Shown piece by piece: positions 2,921 through 52,850 of a stretch of DNA of 64,000 nt. The DNA is from Candidatus Iainarchaeum sp. (GTDB lineage Archaea; Iainarchaeota; Iainarchaeia; Iainarchaeales; JAZDFD01). Each line of letters opens with the position of its first letter. Position 1 is the stretch's first letter. The notes beneath the pieces were generated by a model. It did no database searches. It worked only from the letters and a program-made list of their open reading frames with translations, and was not told the DNA's origin. The stretch is taken from NCBI GenBank assembly GCA_043808155.1, contig JAZDFD010000034.1, positions 739 to 64,738 of the forward strand. The letters are read 5' to 3'. The translations under genes and the position numbers were made by a program.

Positions 2921-3758
2921 TTCTTTGGTTTATAAAAAACTTATTTTCGGCACTGCGGGAATTCCTTTAAGTACAAAGGACAGAAATACAACAAATGGAA
3001 TTGAGCGTGTAAAAGAACTTGGTTTGGGTGCGATGGAATTAGAGTTTGTTCACTCTGTGAATTTAAATGAGGAGAAAGCAAAAGAAGTGAATAAAGCTGC
3101 TGAAAAAAATGAAATTGAATTAACTTGTCACGGGCAGTATTACATTAATCTGAATTCTCTGGAAAAAACTAAAGTAAAGGCTTCAGTTCAGAGAATTTTA
3201 AATGCTGCACGCATTGCGAATACTGCGGGTGCTAAGAGCATGACATTTCACGCTGCGTTTTATATGAAAATGGAAAAAGAAAAAGTTTATGAAAATGTTA
3301 AGCGCGAATTGAAAGCAATTGTGAAAACTTTACAGAGTGAGGGAAATAAAATTTGGATACGTCCTGAGTTCACGGGAAAGGAAACTCAGTTTGGTGATTT
3401 ACGTGAGCTTATTAGATTGAGTACAGATGTTGAGCAGGTTTTGCCTTGCATTGATTTTGCTCACTATCATGCACGTTACAATGGAAAGATGAATTCTTAT
3501 GAAAAATTTTCTGAACTTCTTGAGCAGATTGAAAAACGTTTGGGAAAAAGTGCTTTACATAATATGCACATCCATGTTTCCGGAATTAATTATTCTGAAA
3601 AAGGCGAGAAAAGTCACGCGCCATTGCAGGAATCAGATTTGAAATATAAAGAACTGATAAAGGCGTGGAAAGATTTTGGTATTAAAGGGATAGTGATTTC
3701 TGAATCTCCACTAATTGAAGAAGATGCTCTGCTGATGCAGAAAATTTATTTGAAGTAA
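2892..3758 (+). CDS. AP endonuclease family 2 / endonuclease IV-like TIM-barrel protein (start probably TTG near 2925, after the iscU stop)
   Basis: N-terminal FGTAGIP, His-rich metal-site-like segments (FHAAF, DFAHYHAR, HIHVSGINYSEKGEKSHAP). Size about 280 aa. Confidence 0.6.
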   Translation: MKITEIKKSDSLVYKKLIFGTAGIPLSTKDRNTTNGIERVKELGLGAMELEFVHSVNLNEEKAKEVNKAAEKNEIELTCHGQYYINLNSLEKTKVKASVQRILNAARIANTAGAKSMTFHAAFYMKMEKEKVYENVKRELKAIVKTLQSEGNKIWIRPEFTGKETQFGDLRELIRLSTDVEQVLPCIDFAHYHARYNGKMNSYEKFSELLEQIEKRLGKSALHNMHIHVSGINYSEKGEKSHAPLQESDLKYKELIKAWKDFGIKGIVISESPLIEEDALLMQKIYLK

Positions 3759-3807: not shown

Positions 3808-4050
3808 ATGCCTACTGCAATTGTAAAAATTGATGATGAAGCTAACCGTGTGATTAATATTGTTAAGGCCAAATATGGGCTTAATGACAAAAGCGAGGCC
3901 ATAAACAAAATGGCTGAAGAATATGAACACGAATTACTTGAACCTGAACTAAGACCCGAATACATTGGCAAAATGAAAAAAATCGAGAAAACTAAAACAG
4001 TTAAAGTAAAGGACATTGACGACTATTTTGAAAAGCTTAGAAAGAGATGA
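3808..4050 (+). CDS. putative type II antitoxin (small DUF2683-like protein)
   Basis: 80 aa. N-terminus is MPTAIVKIDDEANRVINIVKAKYGLNDKSEAI. Stop overlaps the start of the RelE-like ORF (ATGA). Confidence 0.5.
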   Translation: MPTAIVKIDDEANRVINIVKAKYGLNDKSEAINKMAEEYEHELLEPELRPEYIGKMKKIEKTKTVKVKDIDDYFEKLRKR

Positions 4051-4319
4051 TTATCTTGTATAAGCTTGAAATTAGAAAACATGTAGATAAAACTTTTGAG
4101 AAAATTGCAAAAAAAGATAAAGTTCAGGAAAATGCAGTTAAAAGAAAAATAAAACAAATTCTTGAAGATCCATACCGATTTAAACCATTGAAAAAACCGC
4201 TTCAGGGAAAGCGTAGAATTCATGTTTTTGGCCCATTTGTTCTTATTTACTCGATTATTGAAAAAGAAAAGAAAATAATAATTGAAGATTACGAACACCA
4301 CGATAAAATTTACAGATAA
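4047..4319 (+). CDS. RelE/ParE-family type II toxin
   Basis: 90 aa. The pattern PLKKPLQGKRRIHVFGPFVLIYSIIEKEKKIIIEDYEHHDKIY resembles the RelE C-terminal core. 4-nt overlap with the upstream small ORF. Confidence 0.65.
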   Translation: MIILYKLEIRKHVDKTFEKIAKKDKVQENAVKRKIKQILEDPYRFKPLKKPLQGKRRIHVFGPFVLIYSIIEKEKKIIIEDYEHHDKIYR

Positions 4320-4767: not shown

Positions 4768-5268
4768 TTGAAAGTACCTAATTTTAGTATGGGTATGGGT
4801 GAAATTAGACACATTGGACCAATAGCTCGTTTAAACGGATTAATGATACACAAAACTGAAGGGCCTGGCGACAGAGAAAGACAAGTGCCGGTAATTGATA
4901 AAAAAGATAAAAAAGGTAAAAAAGGGTTTCAAGATATTTTAGAAAGACGCATGGAATTAATGGAATTAAAAGAAAGAGCAAAACATAATGATGCACTTAT
5001 TGAAGACTTTTTAAACAGGGGAATTTTAGAAATTGATAAAAATTCTGTAAAATTTACTGAATTTGGTTATGCTAGAAATGCAAAAGTGATTGATCCAGAA
5101 TATATGACAACTGTTAAAGGAAAGATGGATGATGAGGAAATTACATTTATAATTTGGAATTCTGGAAATGCACCAACTTTTTACAATGCACGATATGTTC
5201 ATTCACAGAGGAAAAGTGGTGAGTTTATAATAAGCGGAAAACTTAGAACTAAACTTGTTGGAAAGTGA
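4768..5268 (+). CDS. hypothetical protein (166 aa)
   Basis: ORF overlapping the start of the downstream GTPase by 4 nt (operon-like). No motif recognised. Confidence 0.4.
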   Translation: MKVPNFSMGMGEIRHIGPIARLNGLMIHKTEGPGDRERQVPVIDKKDKKGKKGFQDILERRMELMELKERAKHNDALIEDFLNRGILEIDKNSVKFTEFGYARNAKVIDPEYMTTVKGKMDDEEITFIIWNSGNAPTFYNARYVHSQRKSGEFIISGKLRTKLVGK

Positions 5269-6023
5269 TTTTTATGTCATTTAGAAAACGTGTTGGGCAA
5301 GTAATTGAAAAATCAGACATAATTATTGAAATTCTGGATGTGCGATTTCCAGTAATTTGCAGAAACATTGGTTTAGAAAAGAAAATTCTCGAAGCAGGAA
5401 AGAAATTGGTTTTTGTTCTGAACAAGAGTGATTTAGTTTCAAAAAATCAGTCTGAAAGAATTAAGAAACGCTTTGCAGAAAATGAACGTGTGGTTTTTGT
5501 TTCTGCAAGAACCAAAGCAGGCATTGGAATGTTGAGAAGAACAATAAAAGAAATATCAAAAGGTGAAAAAGTTACTGTCGGGATTATTGGTTATCCTAAC
5601 AATGGAAAAAGTTCAGTGATTAATGCACTGCGCGGAAAGAAAGTTACAAAGACTTCCATTAAAGCAGGTTTAACCCGCGGTGAGCAGTTAATTAAATTGG
5701 ATAAGAATGTGATGCTTATTGATACTCCTGGTGTTATTCCTTTTGATGTAAGAGATGAAGCCAAACTGGTAATGATGTGTGCAAAAAGTGCAGAACGAAT
5801 TTCAGATGTTGAAGGCGCGGCATTGGGGGTATTGGAAATGCTTATTGAAAATTATCCTGAAGCACTTGAGAAAAGATATGGTGTTGAACTATCAGATGAG
5901 GCTTATGATATGCTTGAAAAAATCGCATTAAAAAAGAAGAAATTAATTGGAAAAGGCGAACCTGATTTGCACAACACAGCCAAAATCATTATCCTTGACT
6001 GGCAGAAAGGAAAAATTAAGTAA
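5265..6023 (+). CDS. circularly permuted GTPase (YlqF/RbgA-like ribosome-biogenesis GTPase)
   Basis: Motif order is G4 NKSDL, then G1 GYPNNGKSS, then G3 DTPGV. Confidence 0.75.
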   Translation: MIFMSFRKRVGQVIEKSDIIIEILDVRFPVICRNIGLEKKILEAGKKLVFVLNKSDLVSKNQSERIKKRFAENERVVFVSARTKAGIGMLRRTIKEISKGEKVTVGIIGYPNNGKSSVINALRGKKVTKTSIKAGLTRGEQLIKLDKNVMLIDTPGVIPFDVRDEAKLVMMCAKSAERISDVEGAALGVLEMLIENYPEALEKRYGVELSDEAYDMLEKIALKKKKLIGKGEPDLHNTAKIIILDWQKGKIK

Positions 6024-6025
6024 TT

Positions 6026-6126
6026 AACCGAACGCCCGCGAGGCTCAATCCTCGAGCTTGAGTGCACTTTCAGTAGCACATGCTCACTTCGTTCGCAAAG
6101 CCGAACGCCCGACTAGTGCGGGTGCT
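6026..6126. repeat. Orphan GC-rich modular element. Inverted copy of the tRNA-Val leader module and of tRNA-Gly(UCC) trailer modules. Internal 11-nt direct repeat CCGAACGCCCG at 6028 and 6101.
   Basis: 6034-6060 is the exact reverse complement of 11453-11479 (27/27), extending to about 49/54. 6097-6120 matches the reverse complement of 16492-16515 at 23/24. Hairpin at 6062-6079. Confidence 0.85.
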
Positions 6127-6144
6127 AATATTTAAATAATCCAG

Positions 6145-6852
6145 ATGCTTTCTTTTAGCATGCATCCCGAAAAAGTGGCTGGTTTCAAGGCATTTGCAGT
6201 TCTTGTTTATCTTGCATTTACTGGAATTTTAGTTTATCTCTTAATGTTCAATACGGGTTTGGAGATTGGAACCGATCTTTCAGATACAAGCGGGGTTATT
6301 CTTATTGAACTGAAAAACAATGATAAACTTTCAAATCACATAATAAGAGATGCTAAAGTAAGCTTTGTTGATGCTGGCGGAACAAAACATGTGATTGGTG
6401 AAGTTGCAGAATTAATGCCTGGGAAGTCAAAAGAATTTCGCTGGCAAATTCCAGATTATATGCTTAGTGAAGTTATTTTAGTTGCAGAAGCACCTTATCA
6501 TGTTAATGTAGGTTATAAAGGGGATTTTAAAGGGCGTGAAACAGCTAATTTGAGTTATAAAATAAGTTCAACTTTACAAATAAAAATTGGTAAAATATAT
6601 GAAATGTCCGTGAATGTCTGCAATTCTGGAAATAAACCTGCAGAAGAAGTTAAAATCACAGCAACTTATGATGAACACTTTGAAGGTAAAGAAATTTCAG
6701 ATTCTTTTGCTTTAATGGCTGATGAATGCCACAAGTATGATTTTGGTCTGCTTGCTGCGAAGTTAGGGCAAACAGAAATTAATTTTAATATCAGTGCAGA
6801 AAAATATAATGAAAATGAAAAAAGACAAGTAGAGGTAATTGACAATGAATGA
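6145..6852 (+). CDS. membrane-anchored hypothetical protein (N-terminal TM helix, beta-rich extracellular part)
   Basis: Hydrophobic segment FKAFAVLVYLAFTGILVYLLMF followed by a non-repetitive soluble region. Confidence 0.45.
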   Translation: MLSFSMHPEKVAGFKAFAVLVYLAFTGILVYLLMFNTGLEIGTDLSDTSGVILIELKNNDKLSNHIIRDAKVSFVDAGGTKHVIGEVAELMPGKSKEFRWQIPDYMLSEVILVAEAPYHVNVGYKGDFKGRETANLSYKISSTLQIKIGKIYEMSVNVCNSGNKPAEEVKITATYDEHFEGKEISDSFALMADECHKYDFGLLAAKLGQTEINFNISAEKYNENEKRQVEVIDNE

Positions 6853-11304: not shown

Positions 11305-11378
11305 AATATCACCTTTATGTTCTGTGAATAATATGCTGTAGCGGTTTATAAATTTTGCGTGAGCAAATAAATCAGGCA

Positions 11379-11475
11379 GAGCTCAATCTGTGAGTAAATC
11401 AGATGCGCAGTAGATGCGAGCTAAAGCGAGCAAGTGCTACCGAAGGTGCACCCAAGCTCGAGGATTGAGCCTCGC
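11379..11475 (+). repeat. GC-rich structured 5' leader of tRNA-Val, homologous to the reverse strand of the 6026-6126 element. TATA-like tttataaa at 11345-11352.
   Basis: Hairpin at 11434-11451. Module 11452-11475 abuts the tRNA 5' end. 11379-11388 is complementary to 11463-11473 (10 bp, one bulge). Confidence 0.8.
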
Positions 11476-11548
11476 GGGCTTGTGGTCTAGTGGTTATGAT
11501 ACCGCCTTTACATGGCGGGGATCCCCGGTTCGATCCCGGGCAGGCCCA
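11476..11548 (+). tRNA. tRNA-Val (anticodon TAC)
   Basis: Manual cloverleaf: acceptor GGGCTTG/CAGGCCC, anticodon arm CCGCC-TTTACAT-GGCGG, T arm CCCGG-TTCGATC-CCGGG, discriminator A. No CCA. Confidence 0.93.
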
Positions 11549-12694: not shown

Positions 12695-12743
12695 TACACC
12701 GAAAGGATTCGTTTGCAATCCGTGCGCCTTCGGCAGCACTGTT
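12695..12743 (+). repeat. tRNA-Gly(GCC) 3' trailer with two hairpins. The second (12722-12739, then TGTT) belongs to the shared GTGC..TTC..GCAC hairpin family.
   Basis: GGATT-cgtttgc-AATCC (12705-12721). GTGCGCC-TTC-GGC-A-GCAC followed by TGTT, as in the tRNA-Gly(UCC) trailer. Confidence 0.7.
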
Positions 12744-16333: not shown

Positions 16334-16405
16334 GCAGTCGTGGTCTAGTGGTTAGGATCCGAGCCTTCCAAGCTCGTTACCCGGGTTCGAATCCCGGCGA
16401 CTGCA
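16334..16405 (+). tRNA. tRNA-Gly (anticodon TCC)
   Basis: Acceptor GCAGTCG/CGACTGC, anticodon arm GAGCC-TTCCAAG-.. (loop CTTCCAA), T arm CCGGG-TTCGAAT-CCCGG, discriminator A. TATA-like atttaaaag about 28 nt upstream. Confidence 0.93.
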
Positions 16406-16533
16406 CTCGCCGGAAAGATCCGGCGGTGATCTGTACACCCTTCGGTAGCACTGTTGTGAACGAAGTGAACATGTGGCACTTTAGTGCCACTCGCACTAGC
16501 CGGGCGTTCGGCTTTCGAATCCCGGAGGTTGCA
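16406..16533 (+). repeat. GC-rich multi-hairpin 3' trailer of tRNA-Gly(UCC), built from the same modules as 6026-6126 and the tRNA-Val leader. Ends with a tRNA 3'-end-like fragment.
   Basis: Hairpins at 16409-16424, 16433-16451 and 16473-16490. Modules 16456-16472 and 16491-16515 match the reverse complement of 6080-6120. TTCGAATCCCGG-AGGTTGCA at 16514-16533. Confidence 0.8.
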
Positions 16534-19465: not shown

Positions 19466-21379
19466 ATGTATTGCATGATGAAGAAATTTTTAGTCATGTT
19501 TGTACTGCTGATGGCTTTCAGTACTGTTAATGCTGATTCATTCTCATTTGAAAGCGCGTCCAATAATTATGTGATTAATTCTGATGGTTCAATTAACGTA
19601 ACTGAAAATATGACAATTAATTTTTATGACCAATTTTCAGAAGATTACAGGGAAATTCCTCTTGACGGAATTCAGATAAGTGATATTGCAGTTTATTCAG
19701 GAACTGCAAAATTGAATCACAGAACTAAAAATATTTCAAACGGAATTGAAATTTCATGGGATTTGAGCAGGGCTATGAAACAAAGTTTCAGAATTGAATA
19801 TACTCTGAAAAATGCACTGAATGTTTATGACGATGTTGCGGAATTTAATGCAAAAGTCTGGGGCGATCAATGGACTGTTTCTTTAAATAATCTTACAGGA
19901 AAAATTGCACTTCCAGGGAGTGTAACAAAAGCAGAAGACGTCTACACTTTTGGGCATCCTCAAATGGAAGGAACTATAAGACTGCAGAATTACAAAGATG
20001 TTGTTTATAGTCTGAATAATATTCCAGCTGAACAGTGGGTTGAAGTAAGGGTTATTTTTCCGCGTGAATTATTGCAAAGTACTTCGGGTGCAAAAGTAAT
20101 TGCAGGAAATGGTTTGCAAAAAATTCTCGATGAGGAAAATCAGCTTGGTTTGTTTGGAATTTTGGGGGTAATTGTTTTTTGGGTTTTGAATCCTGTTGTT
20201 ATTGCAATTGTGTTTTTTGTAATACTTTGGTTTTTGTATGGAAGGGAACCGAAAGTTGATTATTCGGGAATTTATGAAAGAGATTTGCCTTACAAATATG
20301 CGCCTTCAGTTGTTGGTGCTCTTATTAATCAGGATACGCAGGAACCTGAACAGAAAGATTTTGTTGCTGATTTGCTGAATGTTTGTTTGAAGGGAGTGCT
20401 GAAATTAAAACAGATTCCCAATGAGAAAAATGATTTTGAAATTATGAAAATAAGAGAACCCAAAGCAGGGGAACTTTCAGAACCTGAAAGAATTGTTTAT
20501 GATTTTGTGAATCAGGAAATGATTAATGGAAAAACTAAATTTTCAGAATTGGAAAAGTTTGCAAAAAACTCCCCTAAAAAAGCGTCAGAATTTTTCAAAA
20601 AATGGAATGACTCTTCTAAAAAATATGCAATTGATCAGGGGTTTTTCACAAATCAGAGGGCACAGAGTTTTTATTGGGGGATGTTAACTGTGTTTGGGGC
20701 GATTGGATTAATTTTGGTATTGTCTGATTCCGCGTATATATTTTTGGTTATGATTGGAGTAATTATAAGTGCCTTTAAACGAATTATTAATTTGTCCGCA
20801 CCTTATTTTATTATAGGGTTACTTATTACTGGCAGTATTATGTTTGTGCGAGGACTGTTAATTACCCCTTCAGAAATAACATTAATACCTGGCTTTGGGA
20901 TTAGTATTTCGTTGGTTGAACTTCTTGCGGCTTTTGTTGTGGGGAGTATGTTGCTGAAATTTTTCAGGCAAGCATTACCTGCAAGAACAACAAAAGGTGC
21001 TTTGCATTATGAGAAATGGATGAAGTTCAAGGCGTTTTTGCAGGATTTTTCTGAAATGAAAACAGTTCCGCCTGAAGCAATAATTCTGTGGGAGCAGTTT
21101 TTGGTTTATGCGATTCCTTTAGGAGTTGCAGATGAGGTTGAAAAATCAATGAATATTGTTTTCAAAGATTATGAAGTAAATAATTCAAATATTTTCTATG
21201 GACCCGTGTACTTCAGTGCATTTGCATTCAGACCGTTTAATAAATTTTCAACTGCGGTGGGAGCTGCAGCAGCTGCGGGAATGAAAACCTCAGGGAGTGG
21301 GGGCTTCAGAGGAGGCGGATTTGGGGGAGGCTTCGGCGGTGGCGGTGGTTTTGGAGGCGGTGGCGGTGGCTTCCGTTAA
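19466..21379 (+). CDS. DUF2207-family membrane protein with C-terminal Gly/Phe-rich tail
   Basis: Signal-like N-terminus, central and C-terminal TM helices, tail GGFRGGGFGGGFGGGGGFGGGGGGFR. Convergent with lemA. Confidence 0.65.
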   Translation: MYCMMKKFLVMFVLLMAFSTVNADSFSFESASNNYVINSDGSINVTENMTINFYDQFSEDYREIPLDGIQISDIAVYSGTAKLNHRTKNISNGIEISWDLSRAMKQSFRIEYTLKNALNVYDDVAEFNAKVWGDQWTVSLNNLTGKIALPGSVTKAEDVYTFGHPQMEGTIRLQNYKDVVYSLNNIPAEQWVEVRVIFPRELLQSTSGAKVIAGNGLQKILDEENQLGLFGILGVIVFWVLNPVVIAIVFFVILWFLYGREPKVDYSGIYERDLPYKYAPSVVGALINQDTQEPEQKDFVADLLNVCLKGVLKLKQIPNEKNDFEIMKIREPKAGELSEPERIVYDFVNQEMINGKTKFSELEKFAKNSPKKASEFFKKWNDSSKKYAIDQGFFTNQRAQSFYWGMLTVFGAIGLILVLSDSAYIFLVMIGVIISAFKRIINLSAPYFIIGLLITGSIMFVRGLLITPSEITLIPGFGISISLVELLAAFVVGSMLLKFFRQALPARTTKGALHYEKWMKFKAFLQDFSEMKTVPPEAIILWEQFLVYAIPLGVADEVEKSMNIVFKDYEVNNSNIFYGPVYFSAFAFRPFNKFSTAVGAAAAAGMKTSGSGGFRGGGFGGGFGGGGGFGGGGGGFR

Positions 21380-21409
21380 ATAGAAAATAAAAAAAGAAAA
21401 ATAAAAGAA

Positions 21410-42153: not shown

Positions 42154-44040
42154 ATGGATAAGGGAATAGTGACTATTAGCGAGATTATTCACAATGCACA
42201 AAGTTATGATTCTGAAATAAATGAAGACCAAATAAGAAAAGCATTTGATTTTGCAATGATGTTGGGGGAACAGCGAATAATGCTTTCATTTATTAAACCA
42301 CATAAAGAACATCTTTTAGACATTGCAAAAACAGTTACAGATCTTAAATTAGATTCTGAGACTATTTGTGCAGCTATACTTCATGAAGCAGTTATAGCAG
42401 ATGTGAGTGTTGAAAAATTAGAGGAATTATTTGGTAAAATAATTACCACAATTGTTAAAGAATACTCTGACACATACCTTGTTCTAGAAAGTAATAAGTC
42501 ACACTTGCCTGACGACAAACTTGCGACAATTATGCTCGCAATATCCAAAGATGTAAGAAGTGTGTTTGTGAGTATTTTTATTGCATTAGATACGCTTAGA
42601 TTTATTGATTATTATCCGAAAAATAAGCGAAAAGAGATTGCAAAATCCATACAAGCGATATATCTTCCAATTTGCCACAAACTAGGATTAATAGATATTG
42701 AATGGGAAATACAGGACAGGTGTTTTAAAATACTCGAACCTGACGCGTATGCGGAAATTAAAAGTAAAGTTTCTGAAAAAAGGGAAGCTAGAGAACTAAA
42801 AATAGAAGAGGCTGTAGCTGATGTTGAGTCACTTATTGGAAAACGGGGGAATTATAATTTAGTGGTTTACGGCAGAGCTAAGAGTTTTCATAGTACTTAT
42901 TTGAAAATGATGAACACGGGAAAAACCTTAACGGAGGTTAATGATTTTTTAGGTCTGCGTATTTTATGCAAAGATGAAAGTGAATGTTATAATATTCTGG
43001 GAGTTATTCACTCAAATTATATTTATTTACCTGAATATTTTGATGATTATATTTCACGACCTAAGAAAAACCATTACCAAAGCATACATACAACCGTAAT
43101 TTGGAAAAACCAGCCTCTCGAAATACAAATAAGAACTGAAAAAATGCATAATGAAGCAGAGGGCGGAATTGCCGCACATTGGAAATATAAAAAATATTCT
43201 AAAAATTTACATTTTGATAAAAAATTATCATGGGCAAGACAACTGGTTGAACGACAAAGAAAAATTAAAAATTTGGCCAGTGTTTTTCAATCAATAGAAA
43301 TGCAGTTAGGTAAATGTGAAATTTTTGTTCTAACTCCGAAGAAGGAAGTTATTGTGCTACCTGAAAAATCAACTCCGATTGATTTTGCATTTACAATTCA
43401 TACAAATTTGGGTAGCAAATGCAAACAGGCAAGAGTCAATGGCAGACTTGTTCCATTAGATTATCAATTAAGTAATGGTGATACAGTTGTAATTGACACA
43501 AGTAACAAAACTCAGACAAATAGAGGTTGGTTAGGGTTTGTTAAGTCTGAAAAAGCCAAGAAAAAAATTAGAAGCGCATTATCAATGATTCTTAAACCAA
43601 AAAAACACAAAATAGACACGCACATAAATGACGATAAAATAGTAATTGCAGAATGCTGTAACCCACTACCAGGCGACGATTGTATTGTATATAAAACAAC
43701 AAAAAGGAAATTGATGATTCACAGAAAAGATTGTGACAATGTTGAAAAAATTTCAAAAGAAAAAATATGTAAAACAGAAAAGGGATTTAAAAATATATTA
43801 CCTTTAAAATACACCACAAATATGAAAGTTAAAGCAACTGACAGAGCAGGCCTTTTAACGGATTTGTTGAATGTGTTTGATGATGCTAAACTTGAGGTTA
43901 TCAACACTGAGGCTAAAAGCAAGCCAGACGGCACAATAACCTGCATATTCAAAATTAATGTTAAAAACACGGAACAGGCAGAGGGCATTCTTACAAAGCT
44001 TAAATGTGTCGATTTTGTTCATAATGTTGAAAGAAATTAA
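42154..44040 (+). CDS. long RelA/SpoT homolog (pseudo-HD, (p)ppGpp synthetase, TGS, helical, Zn-finger, ACT/RRM domains)
   Basis: Synthetase motifs GRAKSFHSTYLKM, DFLGLRILC, YISRPKKNHYQSIHTTV and EIQIRTEKMHNEAEGGIAAHWKYK. TGS is IFVLTPKKEVIVLPEKSTPIDFAF..H. CCNPLPGDD..HRKDCDNV. ACT is KVKATDRAGLLTDLLNVF. Confidence 0.85.
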   Translation: MDKGIVTISEIIHNAQSYDSEINEDQIRKAFDFAMMLGEQRIMLSFIKPHKEHLLDIAKTVTDLKLDSETICAAILHEAVIADVSVEKLEELFGKIITTIVKEYSDTYLVLESNKSHLPDDKLATIMLAISKDVRSVFVSIFIALDTLRFIDYYPKNKRKEIAKSIQAIYLPICHKLGLIDIEWEIQDRCFKILEPDAYAEIKSKVSEKREARELKIEEAVADVESLIGKRGNYNLVVYGRAKSFHSTYLKMMNTGKTLTEVNDFLGLRILCKDESECYNILGVIHSNYIYLPEYFDDYISRPKKNHYQSIHTTVIWKNQPLEIQIRTEKMHNEAEGGIAAHWKYKKYSKNLHFDKKLSWARQLVERQRKIKNLASVFQSIEMQLGKCEIFVLTPKKEVIVLPEKSTPIDFAFTIHTNLGSKCKQARVNGRLVPLDYQLSNGDTVVIDTSNKTQTNRGWLGFVKSEKAKKKIRSALSMILKPKKHKIDTHINDDKIVIAECCNPLPGDDCIVYKTTKRKLMIHRKDCDNVEKISKEKICKTEKGFKNILPLKYTTNMKVKATDRAGLLTDLLNVFDDAKLEVINTEAKSKPDGTITCIFKINVKNTEQAEGILTKLKCVDFVHNVERN

Positions 44041-51995: not shown

Positions 51996-52850
51996 TCATT
52001 TCTCTTTATGTGCGAGTTTGTCAAGTGGGCTCTGAACCTTCTTCAGTTGTTCTGTTGAAACAGAGGTGTAAATTTGGGTTGTGCTGAGGTTTGTATGACC
52101 AAGTAATTCTTGAATTTTTCTTATACTTTCTCCTGATTCTAAAAGATGTGTTGCATAAGAATGTCTTAGTGTGTGTGGGGTAACATGTTTCTGGATTCCG
52201 GCTTTTTCAGAAGTTGTTTTAATAATTCTCTGAATCGTATCTACGGACAACGGTTTTCCATTTTTTTTAGAAAAAACAAAATCAGATTCATGTTTTTTAT
52301 TTTTTAAGTATTGTTTTAGGTGTTTAAGCCACTCAGTTGACAGTATGATTATTCTGTCTTTGTTTCCCTTTCCCCCACGAACCTGTGCAATTCTTTCTTT
52401 AACCTCAAGATCATTCACTTTTAGTTTGACGCACTCTGAAACCCTACAACCCGAAGAATAAAGAAATTCAACAATCAACCTGTCTCTTTTAGCTTTTGAA
52501 GCTTTTATCAAATCTTTCACTTCTTTTTGAGTAAGAACAGATGGGAGTTTTTTTGCGCGTTTTGGGCTTTTTATATCCTCCATTATTTTTTTCTTCAGAA
52601 AGCTGTGTGTGAAAAATTTTAGAGACGAATAAACCAATGCAAGCGTAGCATTTGATGTGTTGTTTTCCTTTTTATGTGCCAAGAAATTCACAATATCGTT
52701 TCTTGAAAGGTCGTCAACTGGCTTGTTTGTGAATTCAAGGAATTCCTTAACATATAATTGATACATTATGAGTGTTCTTTTGCTATAGCCTGTAATAGTT
52801 AATTCATTTTTGAAATTCAGTATAACCTCTGCATATTTGGATTCATTCAT
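51996..52850 (-). CDS. xerA: tyrosine recombinase (XerA/XerC/D-like integrase)
   Basis: N-terminal SAM-like domain. Catalytic residues in SGCRVSE (R), HTLRHSYATHLL (H-x-x-R), LGHTNLSTTQIYT (H..Y). Confidence 0.85.
   Translation of the reverse strand: MNESKYAEVILNFKNELTITGYSKRTLIMYQLYVKEFLEFTNKPVDDLSRNDIVNFLAHKKENNTSNATLALVYSSLKFFTHSFLKKKIMEDIKSPKRAKKLPSVLTQKEVKDLIKASKAKRDRLIVEFLYSSGCRVSECVKLKVNDLEVKERIAQVRGGKGNKDRIIILSTEWLKHLKQYLKNKKHESDFVFSKKNGKPLSVDTIQRIIKTTSEKAGIQKHVTPHTLRHSYATHLLESGESIRKIQELLGHTNLSTTQIYTSVSTEQLKKVQSPLDKLAHKEK

Follow-up and report, generated by a model that had tools for sequence, protein, structure and literature searches.

The GC-rich block at positions 6026-6126 (referred to here as E) of the 64,000-nucleotide stretch of archaeal DNA analyzed in this study (the window) is composed, as judged from alignment with an uninterrupted site in a relative, of a pre-existing module of approximately 40 nt (module M), a 62-nt insert and a target-like duplication of 11 nt. 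The inserted sequence is one member of a repeat family that appears to be undescribed and to belong to one Diapherotrites/Iainarchaeota (DPANN) lineage. E and its family are probably a MITE/REP-like or "GC-cluster"-like repeat, non-autonomous, mobile or recombinogenic, and favoring the flanks of tRNA genes. This explanation is preferred because of the 11-nt duplication, the presence of two polymorphic loci, the occurrence of copies at unrelated loci and in both orientations, the mosaic reshuffling of modules, the retention of hairpins, and the lack of a corresponding Rfam family. DPANN genomes are very small and streamlined, and are usually thought to be nearly repeat-free. If the proposed explanation is true, hairpin cassettes that move, shuffle and lodge precisely at the mature ends of tRNA genes would represent a new example of small selfish DNA in archaea, and the repeat family would offer a practical marker of strain-level variation in these uncultured archaea. 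For annotation, the result means that long GC-rich tRNA leaders and trailers, as well as "orphan" GC islands in such genomes, are not necessarily new RNA genes.

E is located between the stop codon (6021-6023) of a gene encoding an MMR_HSR1/RsgA-type GTPase of the ribosome-biogenesis type (5265-6023, identified with Pfam) and a co-directional gene downstream, and has a GC content of 58% in a window with an overall GC content of 35%. The only non-coding GC-rich islands of the window are E, the tRNAs with their flanks, and the archaeal SRP RNA, which was recognized by Rfam. The nearest proteins to the DnaG, GTPase and dTMP kinase of the window are those of Diapherotrites/Iainarchaeum MAGs. The initial annotation, which was made from the letters of the sequence, had described E as an inverted mosaic of a tRNA-Val leader and a tRNA-Gly(UCC) trailer, and the underlying matches were all reproduced upon recomputation. 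Positions 6034-6060 are the reverse complement of 11453-11479 at 27 of 27 positions, a match that takes in GGGC, the first 4 nt of mature tRNA-Val (11476-11479). The longer stretch 6034-6087 agrees with the reverse complement of 11426-11479 at 49 of 54 positions, and a repeat search widens this similarity to 63 nt at 87% identity (6027-6089 and 11424-11486). On the tRNA-Gly side, 6097-6120 matches the reverse complement of 16492-16515 at 23 of 24 positions (28 nt at 93% in the repeat search) and 6080-6096 matches that of 16456-16472 at 15 of 17. The 11-nt direct repeat CCGAACGCCCG, with starts at 6028 and 6101 and therefore a 73-nt spacing, was likewise recovered, as was TATTTAAATA at 6129-6138; a third copy of CCGAACGCCCG, inverted, is found at 16501-16511. 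A 19-mer from the core of the match, CTCGAGGATTGAGCCTCGC, has two occurrences compared to 0.00 expected from 100 dinucleotide shuffles, and the matches of E are far beyond chance.

Neither ARAGORN nor Rfam detected a tRNA in E, in agreement with the initial annotation, and the best match of Rfam 15 over E reached 13.7 bits, where the gathering threshold is 81.3 bits. When Rfam was applied at the gathering threshold to the whole window, and with relaxed E-value cut-offs to E, to the region of the tRNAs and to five related contigs, only tRNAs and the SRP RNA were returned, and no Rfam family covers the leader and trailer modules of the window and its relatives. A C/D box sRNA was considered and rejected, as the C box (RUGAUGA) is absent, CUGA is found in the loop of the first hairpin (hpA, described below) in some copies only, and no Rfam snoRNA or sRNA match was obtained.

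The insertion at E is evident from contig L060 (Logan ERR10503171), the GTPase of which is 85% identical to that of the window. The spacer following the GTPase gene in this relative, TAATTAGCCGAACGCCAGGCTGGTGCGGATGCCAATGTTTAAATAAT, can be aligned to the window to the left and right of one gap of 73 nt. This gap is accounted for by the 62 nt at 6039-6100 and by one of the two 11-nt repeats, CCGAACGCCCG being single at the empty site of L060 and double at E. Because the same spacer exists in L060 with these 73 nt missing, E represents an insertion into an older spacer. The L060 site could in principle have arisen by precise deletion between the 11-nt repeats; even so, an earlier duplicating insertion would still be required. 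The mosaic nature of E thus stands as first described, while its earlier portrayal as a circularly permuted tandem unit is re-explained as a 62-nt insertion with an 11-nt flanking duplication, given that the spacer of L060 is uninterrupted.

As delimited by the alignment with the L060 spacer, the left part of module M, TTAACCGAACGCCCG (6024-6038, plus strand), includes the first copy of CCGAACGCCCG (6028-6038). The module begins 1 nt past the GTPase stop codon. Its right part, GCCGAACGCCCGACTAGTGCGGGTGC (6100-6125, plus strand), recurs in L060, in L062 and, inverted, at 16488-16515 of the window. The second copy of CCGAACGCCCG (6101-6111, plus strand), a sequence with a single copy at the empty site of L060, forms a flank that resembles a target-site duplication, and in the minus-strand reading the direct repeat reaches 13 nt with one mismatch (CGGGCGTTCGG[C/T]T). 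The inserted 62-nt element itself (6039-6100, minus strand) is absent from L060, is recognized by a covariance model of the family (R1) and has homologues in contigs L064, L065 and L066. In the minus-strand reading it consists of a 5' module, GCGAACGAAGTGAGC (6096-6082), the hairpin hpA (6079-6062; GTGC-U-ACU-GAA-AGU-GCAC), a linker, and a second hairpin, hpB, of sequence CGAGGATTGAGCCTCG (6054-6039). Direct inspection of the ends of the insert (6039-6100) revealed no terminal inverted repeats.

The TATA box TTTAAATA (6131-6138, plus strand) is situated 21 nt upstream of the ATG at 6160, which is probably the start of the downstream gene and of a leaderless mRNA. This spacing is shared by the window, L060 and L061 (the last a more distant relative), and because it is kept in L060 and L061, both of which are without the insertion, the box is assigned to the promoter of the downstream gene. 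A role as promoter of the minus strand of E, which had been suggested from its placement, is therefore not called for, the element being already accounted for by the downstream gene. Because the box is palindromic, transcription of the minus strand could nevertheless start there, and TTTAAATA is present on that strand at 6136-6129.

The other full copy of the repeat in the window occupies the leader of tRNA-Val(UAC) (11416-11475, plus strand) and ends exactly at position -1 of the tRNA. It is composed of the 5' module GCGAGCTAAAGCGAGC, hpA (11434-11451) and hpB (11459-11474). Model R1 matches E at 6038-6096 on the minus strand (84.1 bits, E = 2.7e-24), and the scores of the two copies (84 bits for E versus 86 bits for the leader) identify the minus strand of E as a true paralog of the tRNA-Val leader block, as had been proposed. 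Upstream of the leader copy is an extra, lineage-specific filler (11376-11415, plus strand), of which GCAGAGCTCAATCT (11376-11389) is an inverted match to an arm of hpB at 12 of 14 positions and is missing from L065, and GTGAGTAAATCAG (11390-11402) is a repeat of the native leader at 11359-11375. Terminal inverted repeats were rejected as a feature of the family, having been seen in one copy only. The leader block is absent from L057, L058, L059, L001 and L004, all of which have a TATA box, a normal short leader and then tRNA-Val, and is present in L065. In L059 the promoter and native leader of the window are kept (…TTTATAAATTTTG…AATCTGG) and tRNA-Val comes directly next; in the window, approximately 100 nt are interposed exactly between the native leader and the +1 position of tRNA-Val. 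By this comparison, the tRNA-Val leader block is also an insertion.

A scan of metagenomes with a 20-mer from hpB led to three JGI contigs containing additional copies. In L065, the DNA of which is 81.5% identical to the window over DnaG, the orthologous tRNA-Val carries a leader-type unit; in L064 a leader-type unit ends at position -1 of tRNA-Asp(GUC); and in L066 a truncated unit is found in the 82-nt spacer from an AspRS-like gene to the next gene, where there is no tRNA. Covariance model R1 was built from four copies, and within the 64-kb window it identified full copies only at E and in the tRNA-Val leader, with a partial and weak match at 16456-16494 (E = 0.5). In leader orientation, the consensus reads GCGARC-N-YGAGC, hpA, NCAAGCT, hpB (CGAGGATTGAGCCTCG), Y, and then the tRNA at +1. 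The stems of hpA are wholly different between genomes, yet pairing is always kept: E has GTGC-T-ACT-GAA-AGT-GCAC, the tRNA-Val leader has the same hairpin with ACC/GGT replacing ACT/AGT, L064 has GTCCAGC-TGAAA-GCTGGAC, and L065 has TCCCGC-TAAAAA-CGGGA. In contrast to hpA, hpB and the CA that flanks it do not vary among the five copies; three of these copies were found with the hpB 20-mer, so that the identity is in part an effect of ascertainment. Two copies close the leader unit with a G-C pair and two with a G-U pair. By our own count, five of seven independent leader- or trailer-type insertions abut a tRNA end, a share that is far above intergenic chance, though the ascertainment is biased towards tRNA neighborhoods. 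On the copies at hand, the repeat family is unusual in how closely it keeps to the precise ends of tRNA genes. The initial annotation had asked whether copies always neighbor tRNA genes; most of them do, but E and the copy in L066 are located in spacers between protein genes.

The position and conservation of the leader-type unit also invite an explanation at the RNA level, in which the unit is a functional structured domain of the pre-tRNA that contributes to processing, to the insulation of folding in an AT-rich transcript, or to protein binding; we consider this possible but unlikely. With a closing stem (GCGA/UCGY), hpA and hpB, the unit would fold as a three-way junction directly 5' of the mature tRNA, and E would be a displaced copy, possibly expressed alone on the minus strand from the palindromic TATA box. 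The presence of TTTAAATA on that strand is compatible with such expression, but the box is already assigned to the downstream gene and the minus-strand fold of E is ordinary (z = -1.05, not exceptional). In two genomes with 81% DNA identity the last nucleotide of the unit is position -1 of tRNA-Val, and in a third contig it is -1 of tRNA-Asp, whereas the close relatives L057, L058 and L059 mature tRNA-Val without it, and the copies in protein-gene spacers (E and L066) occur in either orientation relative to transcription. Invariance of hpB and CA in five copies, with hpA changing only by stem-preserving replacement, would be expected of a functional RNA, but the invariance of hpB results in part from the search with the 20-mer. 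In addition, the alternation of G-C and G-U at the closing pair can be accommodated only if the RNA is of leader sense, and all eight mismatches in the 63 nt shared by E and the tRNA-Val leader fall outside the 27-nt hpB block. The exact ending at -1 of two tRNAs and the identity of hpB fit a function at the RNA level as well as, or better than, the action of a DNA transposase. However, RNase P does not normally prefer a hairpin flush against +1. If the functional reading were true, it would point to a new pre-tRNA leader domain. A more specific version seems quite improbable: the unit would be a new structured RNA domain fused to the 5' ends of certain pre-tRNAs for maturation or protection, the hairpin common to the tRNA-Val leader and the tRNA-Gly trailer (where it is inverted) would reflect a genome-specific binding factor, and E would be a copy, free-standing or borne in a 3' UTR, that competes for that factor or delivers it. 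A tRNA-like minihelix cut by RNase Z to give the tRNA 5' end was also considered and was rejected, as the closing stem has just 4 bp and the unpaired discriminator nucleotide appears to be absent.

The trailers of the tRNA-Gly genes contain related modules. A trailer-type two-hairpin module directly follows tRNA-Gly(GCC) (12695-12743, plus strand), with a first hairpin (hp1) whose loop is about AAAGAT and a second (hp2) of GTGCGCC-TTC-GGCAGCAC; this module is kept in L057 and is found beside tRNA-Asp in L064. Another module of this type directly follows tRNA-Gly(UCC) (16406-16455, plus strand). It is succeeded by a partial leader-type unit (16456-16490, plus strand), which consists of the 5' module GTGAACGAAGTGAAC and the hairpin GTGGCAC-TTTA-GTGCCAC and gives rise to the 15 of 17 match with E and the weak R1 match, and then by an inverted copy of module M (16488-16515, minus strand; 26 of 28 positions identical to 6097-6124). 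The trailer hairpin hp2 is the hpA hairpin of the leader in opposite orientation. In L065 the identity between the leader and tRNA-Gly trailer hairpins recurs with an entirely different sequence: the leader carries TCCCGCTAAAAACGGGA and the tRNA-Gly trailer TCCCGTTTTTAACGGGA. Relative to the adjoining tRNA, the trailer-type module is in sense orientation at tRNA-Gly (the window and L057) and in antisense orientation at tRNA-Asp (L064), and exhibits compensatory changes at four base pairs. Overall, the tRNA-Gly trailers vary among close relatives and are assembled from such modules. Candidate identities of the tRNA-Gly trailer as a 5S rRNA, a C/D box RNA or an H/ACA RNA were rejected, with neither boxes nor a pseudouridylation pocket found and without Rfam support.

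Module M likewise occurs in both orientations. It is inverted in the tRNA-Gly(UCC) trailer of the window, reads in the sense direction behind the GTPase gene of both the window and L060, and in L062 is located directly after tRNA-Gly(UCC), again in sense orientation. Because M sits after the GTPase gene in L060 and after tRNA-Gly(UCC) in L062, the similarity of 6097-6120 to the tRNA-Gly trailer is a match to M. The link between E and the tRNA-Gly(UCC) trailer that was first reported is thus real as a sequence match, but the partner within E is the old spacer module and not the inserted element.

One potential explanation is that the blocks, instead of being a self-propagating repeat, are scars of integration and excision by an integrase at tRNA genes (att-site remnants), although this is very unlikely. 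The tRNA-Gly trailers are hypervariable among relatives, and 12 nt of the T-arm of tRNA-Gly(UCC), TTCGAATCCCGG, are repeated 128 nt downstream (16386 and 16514) and are followed there by a different acceptor strand, an arrangement that resembles attL/attR. E, however, is located away from tRNA genes and carries no tRNA fragment, the leader-type copies are found at the tRNA 5' end, which is an unusual att position, and the leader-type unit recurs at sites without a tRNA. A tyrosine recombinase gene is encoded at 51996-52850, but the product of this gene, the sole recombinase in the window, is XerA-like, and its length and domain layout suggest the chromosomal XerA type. Nor was any module found in the viral contigs of IMG/VR. 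A viral or plasmid origin was examined as a candidate in its own right and rejected: searches of IMG/VR with three module patterns gave 0 matches, and a 15-mer gave 52 matches, a number consistent with chance. No transposase, RAYT or IS200/IS605 gene was found among the 46 ORFs of the 64-kb window compared with Pfam.

The tRNA-Gly(UCC) trailer ends in a 20-mer that resembles the 3' end of a tRNA (TTCGAATCCCGG-AGGTTGCA, 16514-16533). Together with the GC-rich leaders and trailers beside tRNAs in a DPANN archaeon, this could suggest that E, the tRNA-Val leader and the tRNA-Gly trailer form a fragmented-tRNA system (split or permuted tRNAs, or intron-derived leaders), with complementary GC-rich flanks that join the pieces at a bulge-helix-bulge site for the splicing endonuclease. 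Such a system is barely credible here, and the split-tRNA reading is largely refuted. The three tRNAs are each complete, with scores of 61-67 bits under the Rfam tRNA model, no tRNA half adjoins E according to ARAGORN and Rfam, and a 5' half with the acceptor strand GCAACCT (the complement of AGGTTGC) was not found in the window. Furthermore, the duplex between E and the leader is a perfect helix with no bulges, and the leader and trailer hairpins are copies of one hairpin instead of partners flanking two halves.

It is highly improbable that E, as the plus-strand 3' UTR of the GTPase gene, acts in trans as an antisense RNA to the leader and 5' end of pre-tRNA-Val and to the trailer of pre-tRNA-Gly(UCC). 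The complementarity is extensive, covering 63 nt at 87%, of which 27 nt pair perfectly and take in +1 to +4 of tRNA-Val, and 28 nt at 93% with the tRNA-Gly trailer, but it is an automatic by-product of inverted repeat copies; two inverted copies of one repeat would give it in any case, and it carries no weight as evidence for the antisense pairing that had been envisaged. The interval from the GTPase stop codon to E contains no oligo-T terminator, which makes co-transcription of E with the GTPase gene probable, and the predicted fold of the plus strand of E is somewhat more stable than those of shuffled sequences (z = -2.0). Strong self-structure in both RNAs would nevertheless disfavor a duplex, both partners are lineage-specific insertions that are absent in close relatives, and there is no sign of co-evolution between E and its targets beyond common family descent.

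The preferred explanation remains a small mobile or recombinogenic repeat. Module M in the 3' spacer of the GTPase gene received one copy of a dispersed, GC-rich, hairpin-forming repeat, and this copy is probably a passive passenger in the GTPase 3' UTR. The family consists of exchangeable hairpin cassettes (a 5' module, a variable hpA and a constant hpB), to which the two-hairpin trailer type is related. Copies are found in either orientation, mostly flush with mature tRNA ends (tRNA-Val and tRNA-Asp leaders, tRNA-Gly and tRNA-Asp trailers) and in a minority of cases in short spacers between protein genes (E and L066), tRNA flanks and 3' spacers presumably being sites where insertion is tolerated or targeted. 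The data show the insertion with its flanking duplication, the presence/absence differences among relatives, the membership of E in the family and the upkeep of the hairpins, and from these we infer that mobility is the cause of the patterns and that the copy at E is without a dedicated function. Several observations count against mobility: the insert is without terminal inverted repeats, the window has no transposase gene, the tRNA-Val and tRNA-Asp copies have no visible flanking duplication, and just two full copies and one partial copy are present in 64 kb. The orphan regulatory architecture first envisaged for E stands in its match data, but as an interpretation is mostly replaced by the insertion of a repeat into an older spacer.

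Several known systems share features with the family. The fragmented tRNA genes of Nanoarchaeum and the Thermoproteales include split and tri-split tRNAs, transposed introns, and homologous leaders and introns. As in the window, related GC-rich sequences occur beside different tRNA genes of one genome and have apparently moved between them. In those archaea, however, complementary flanks form a bulge-helix-bulge (BHB) and join tRNA pieces, whereas the tRNAs are intact here, no BHB motif is seen, and copies of the family are also found away from tRNAs.

REPs, which RAYT transposases move, and RAYTs have been described in bacteria, at more than 100 copies per genome. The family differs from REP/BIME elements in its archaeal host, in its two to three copies per 64 kb, in the lack of a RAYT or IS200-like gene in the window, and in that a GTAG/CGTC tag is not at the canonical position. 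REP, BIME and REPIN sequences are GC-rich imperfect palindromes that are extragenic, often in 3' UTRs, occur in alternating orientations and as mosaics, and have genome-specific hairpins within a fixed architecture (PMC2817692, PMC3116915). The family resembles them in each of these listed traits of palindromes, orientation, mosaics and hairpin architecture, its copies being short GC-rich imperfect palindromes that are extragenic, found in both orientations and assembled as mosaics.

The GC clusters of yeast mitochondria inhabit an AT-rich genome, have short flanking duplications and presence/absence polymorphism, undergo merger and shuffling of palindromic units, and are transcribed passively with neighboring genes (PMC4478555). 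Scattered GC-rich hairpins, flanking duplications, polymorphism and mosaics are common to these clusters (PMC4478555) and the family; the duplications are 2-3 nt in yeast versus 11 nt here, the host and scale differ, and an association with tRNA ends is not described for the yeast clusters but is found in the family.

With the miniature inverted-repeat transposable elements (MITEs) of bacteria and archaea, the family shares a small size (60-100 nt), non-coding content, intergenic location, presence/absence at two loci, a direct duplication at the E site (11 nt, CCGAACGCCCG) that is of the target-site type, and a spread of copies, in either orientation, over unrelated loci. L060 has no insert at the E site, the tRNA-Val leader site lacks the block in L057, L058 and L059 and contains it in L065, and more copies are present in L064 and L066. 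Unlike in MITEs, there are no terminal inverted repeats at the E insert and no visible duplications at the tRNA copies, and no insertion sequence is known to go with the family. The initial annotation had reserved the name of a plain MITE for randomly scattered copies with target-site duplications and with neither covariation nor tRNA association; duplication and presence/absence polymorphism were both seen, but hairpin covariation and a clear association with tRNA genes were seen as well. A further difference from MITEs is how strongly the family favors the very ends of tRNA genes.

A conserved two-hairpin module is found immediately 3' of tRNA-Gly genes, occurring twice in the window (12695-12743 and 16406-16455) and once in L057, a contig compared with it (3465-3512); in another such contig, L064, the module lies in antisense orientation adjoining tRNA-Asp (1272-1318). 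The first hairpin bears an AAAGAT loop and the second reads GTGC-RCC-TTC-GGY-A-GCAC, with compensatory changes at four pairs of the module, for which no match was found in Rfam. A different conserved trailer of ~50 nt, AAGAACCTTTT..GAGCACTCGCTTCGCTCGCTTCC..AAAAGGTTCACGAAAA, follows tRNA-Gly(GCC) and tRNA-Gly(UCC) in more distant Iainarchaeum MAGs (L001, 4039-4090; L004, 15398-15450) and forms a long hairpin. A third trailer module, in which TTGCCCGA…TTCCGATCGRGCGTACCGGAATA is followed by a variable hairpin and then by CAGTAATATT, is common to two relatives, occurring after tRNA-Gly(UCC) in L063 (~75-150 on the minus strand) and after tRNA-Gly(GCC) in L065 (2142-2255). Structured tRNA-Gly trailers may be widespread across the phylum.

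Within a single genome, the same hairpin is present in opposite orientations in the tRNA-Val leader and the tRNA-Gly(GCC) trailer, both in the window (11434-11451 and 12722-12739, respectively) and in L065 (~1437-1457 and ~2228-2250). Leader and trailer thus agree within each genome, yet the hairpin sequence is wholly different between the window and L065, which points to concerted evolution or else to a hairpin cassette specific to each genome. The tRNA-Val leader of the window also contains a repeat of its own (11359-11402), where the native leader segment GTGAGCAAATAAATCAG recurs as GTGAGTAAATCAG, and between the two lies GCAGAGCTCAATCT, a 14-nt inverted copy of an arm of hpB, the constant hairpin of the leader-type repeat unit. 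This arrangement may have been left behind by a second event.

Duplicated sequence is likewise found at tRNA-Gly(UCC) in the window (16386-16533), where TTCGAATCCCGG, 12 nt of the T-loop and stem, has a second copy 128 nt downstream (16514-16525). Directly after this copy, AGGTTGCA completes a 20-mer ending at 16533 that resembles a tRNA 3' end whose acceptor strand is different; six of the seven positions of this strand could pair with the 5' strand of tRNA-Gly(UCC) itself, two of them as G-U pairs. The repeated segment and 20-mer look like an att-type scar, the remnant of integrase-mediated integration and excision at a tRNA gene, or like what is left of another tRNA's 3' end.

The ORF downstream of the GC-rich block that follows the GTPase gene was listed from ATG 6145, and its real start is probably the in-frame ATG 6160 (window 6145-6162). 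In three genomes the same 21 nt separate this ATG from the TATA box that precedes it, and gene callers place the start of the orthologs in the relatives L060 and L061 at the equivalent ATG. The mRNA starting at ATG 6160 would be leaderless. In L061, the more distant of these relatives, a GC-rich 120-nt spacer with several hairpins and unrelated sequence occupies the same position 3' of the GTPase gene (3959-4075); the presence of a structured spacer at its 3' side may be conserved for this gene, though without sequence conservation. L061 also has, upstream of the syntenic block, a NifU-like gene (117-1529) that is interrupted by an intein containing a LAGLIDADG homing-endonuclease domain.

The top GC island of the window (21245-21391) is coding: it specifies the C-terminal tail of a DUF2207 membrane protein, a glycine-rich stretch with GGFGGG repeats. 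The 284-aa tyrosine recombinase encoded at 51996-52850 (minus strand), with Phage_integrase and N-terminal SAM-like domains, is most likely of the chromosomal XerA type, and no other recombinase was found within the 64-kb window. This DPANN archaeon additionally encodes a long RelA/SpoT-type protein of 628 aa with HD, RelA_SpoT, TGS and ACT domains (42154-44040); archaea do not usually have full-length RSH enzymes, so the gene may have been acquired horizontally.
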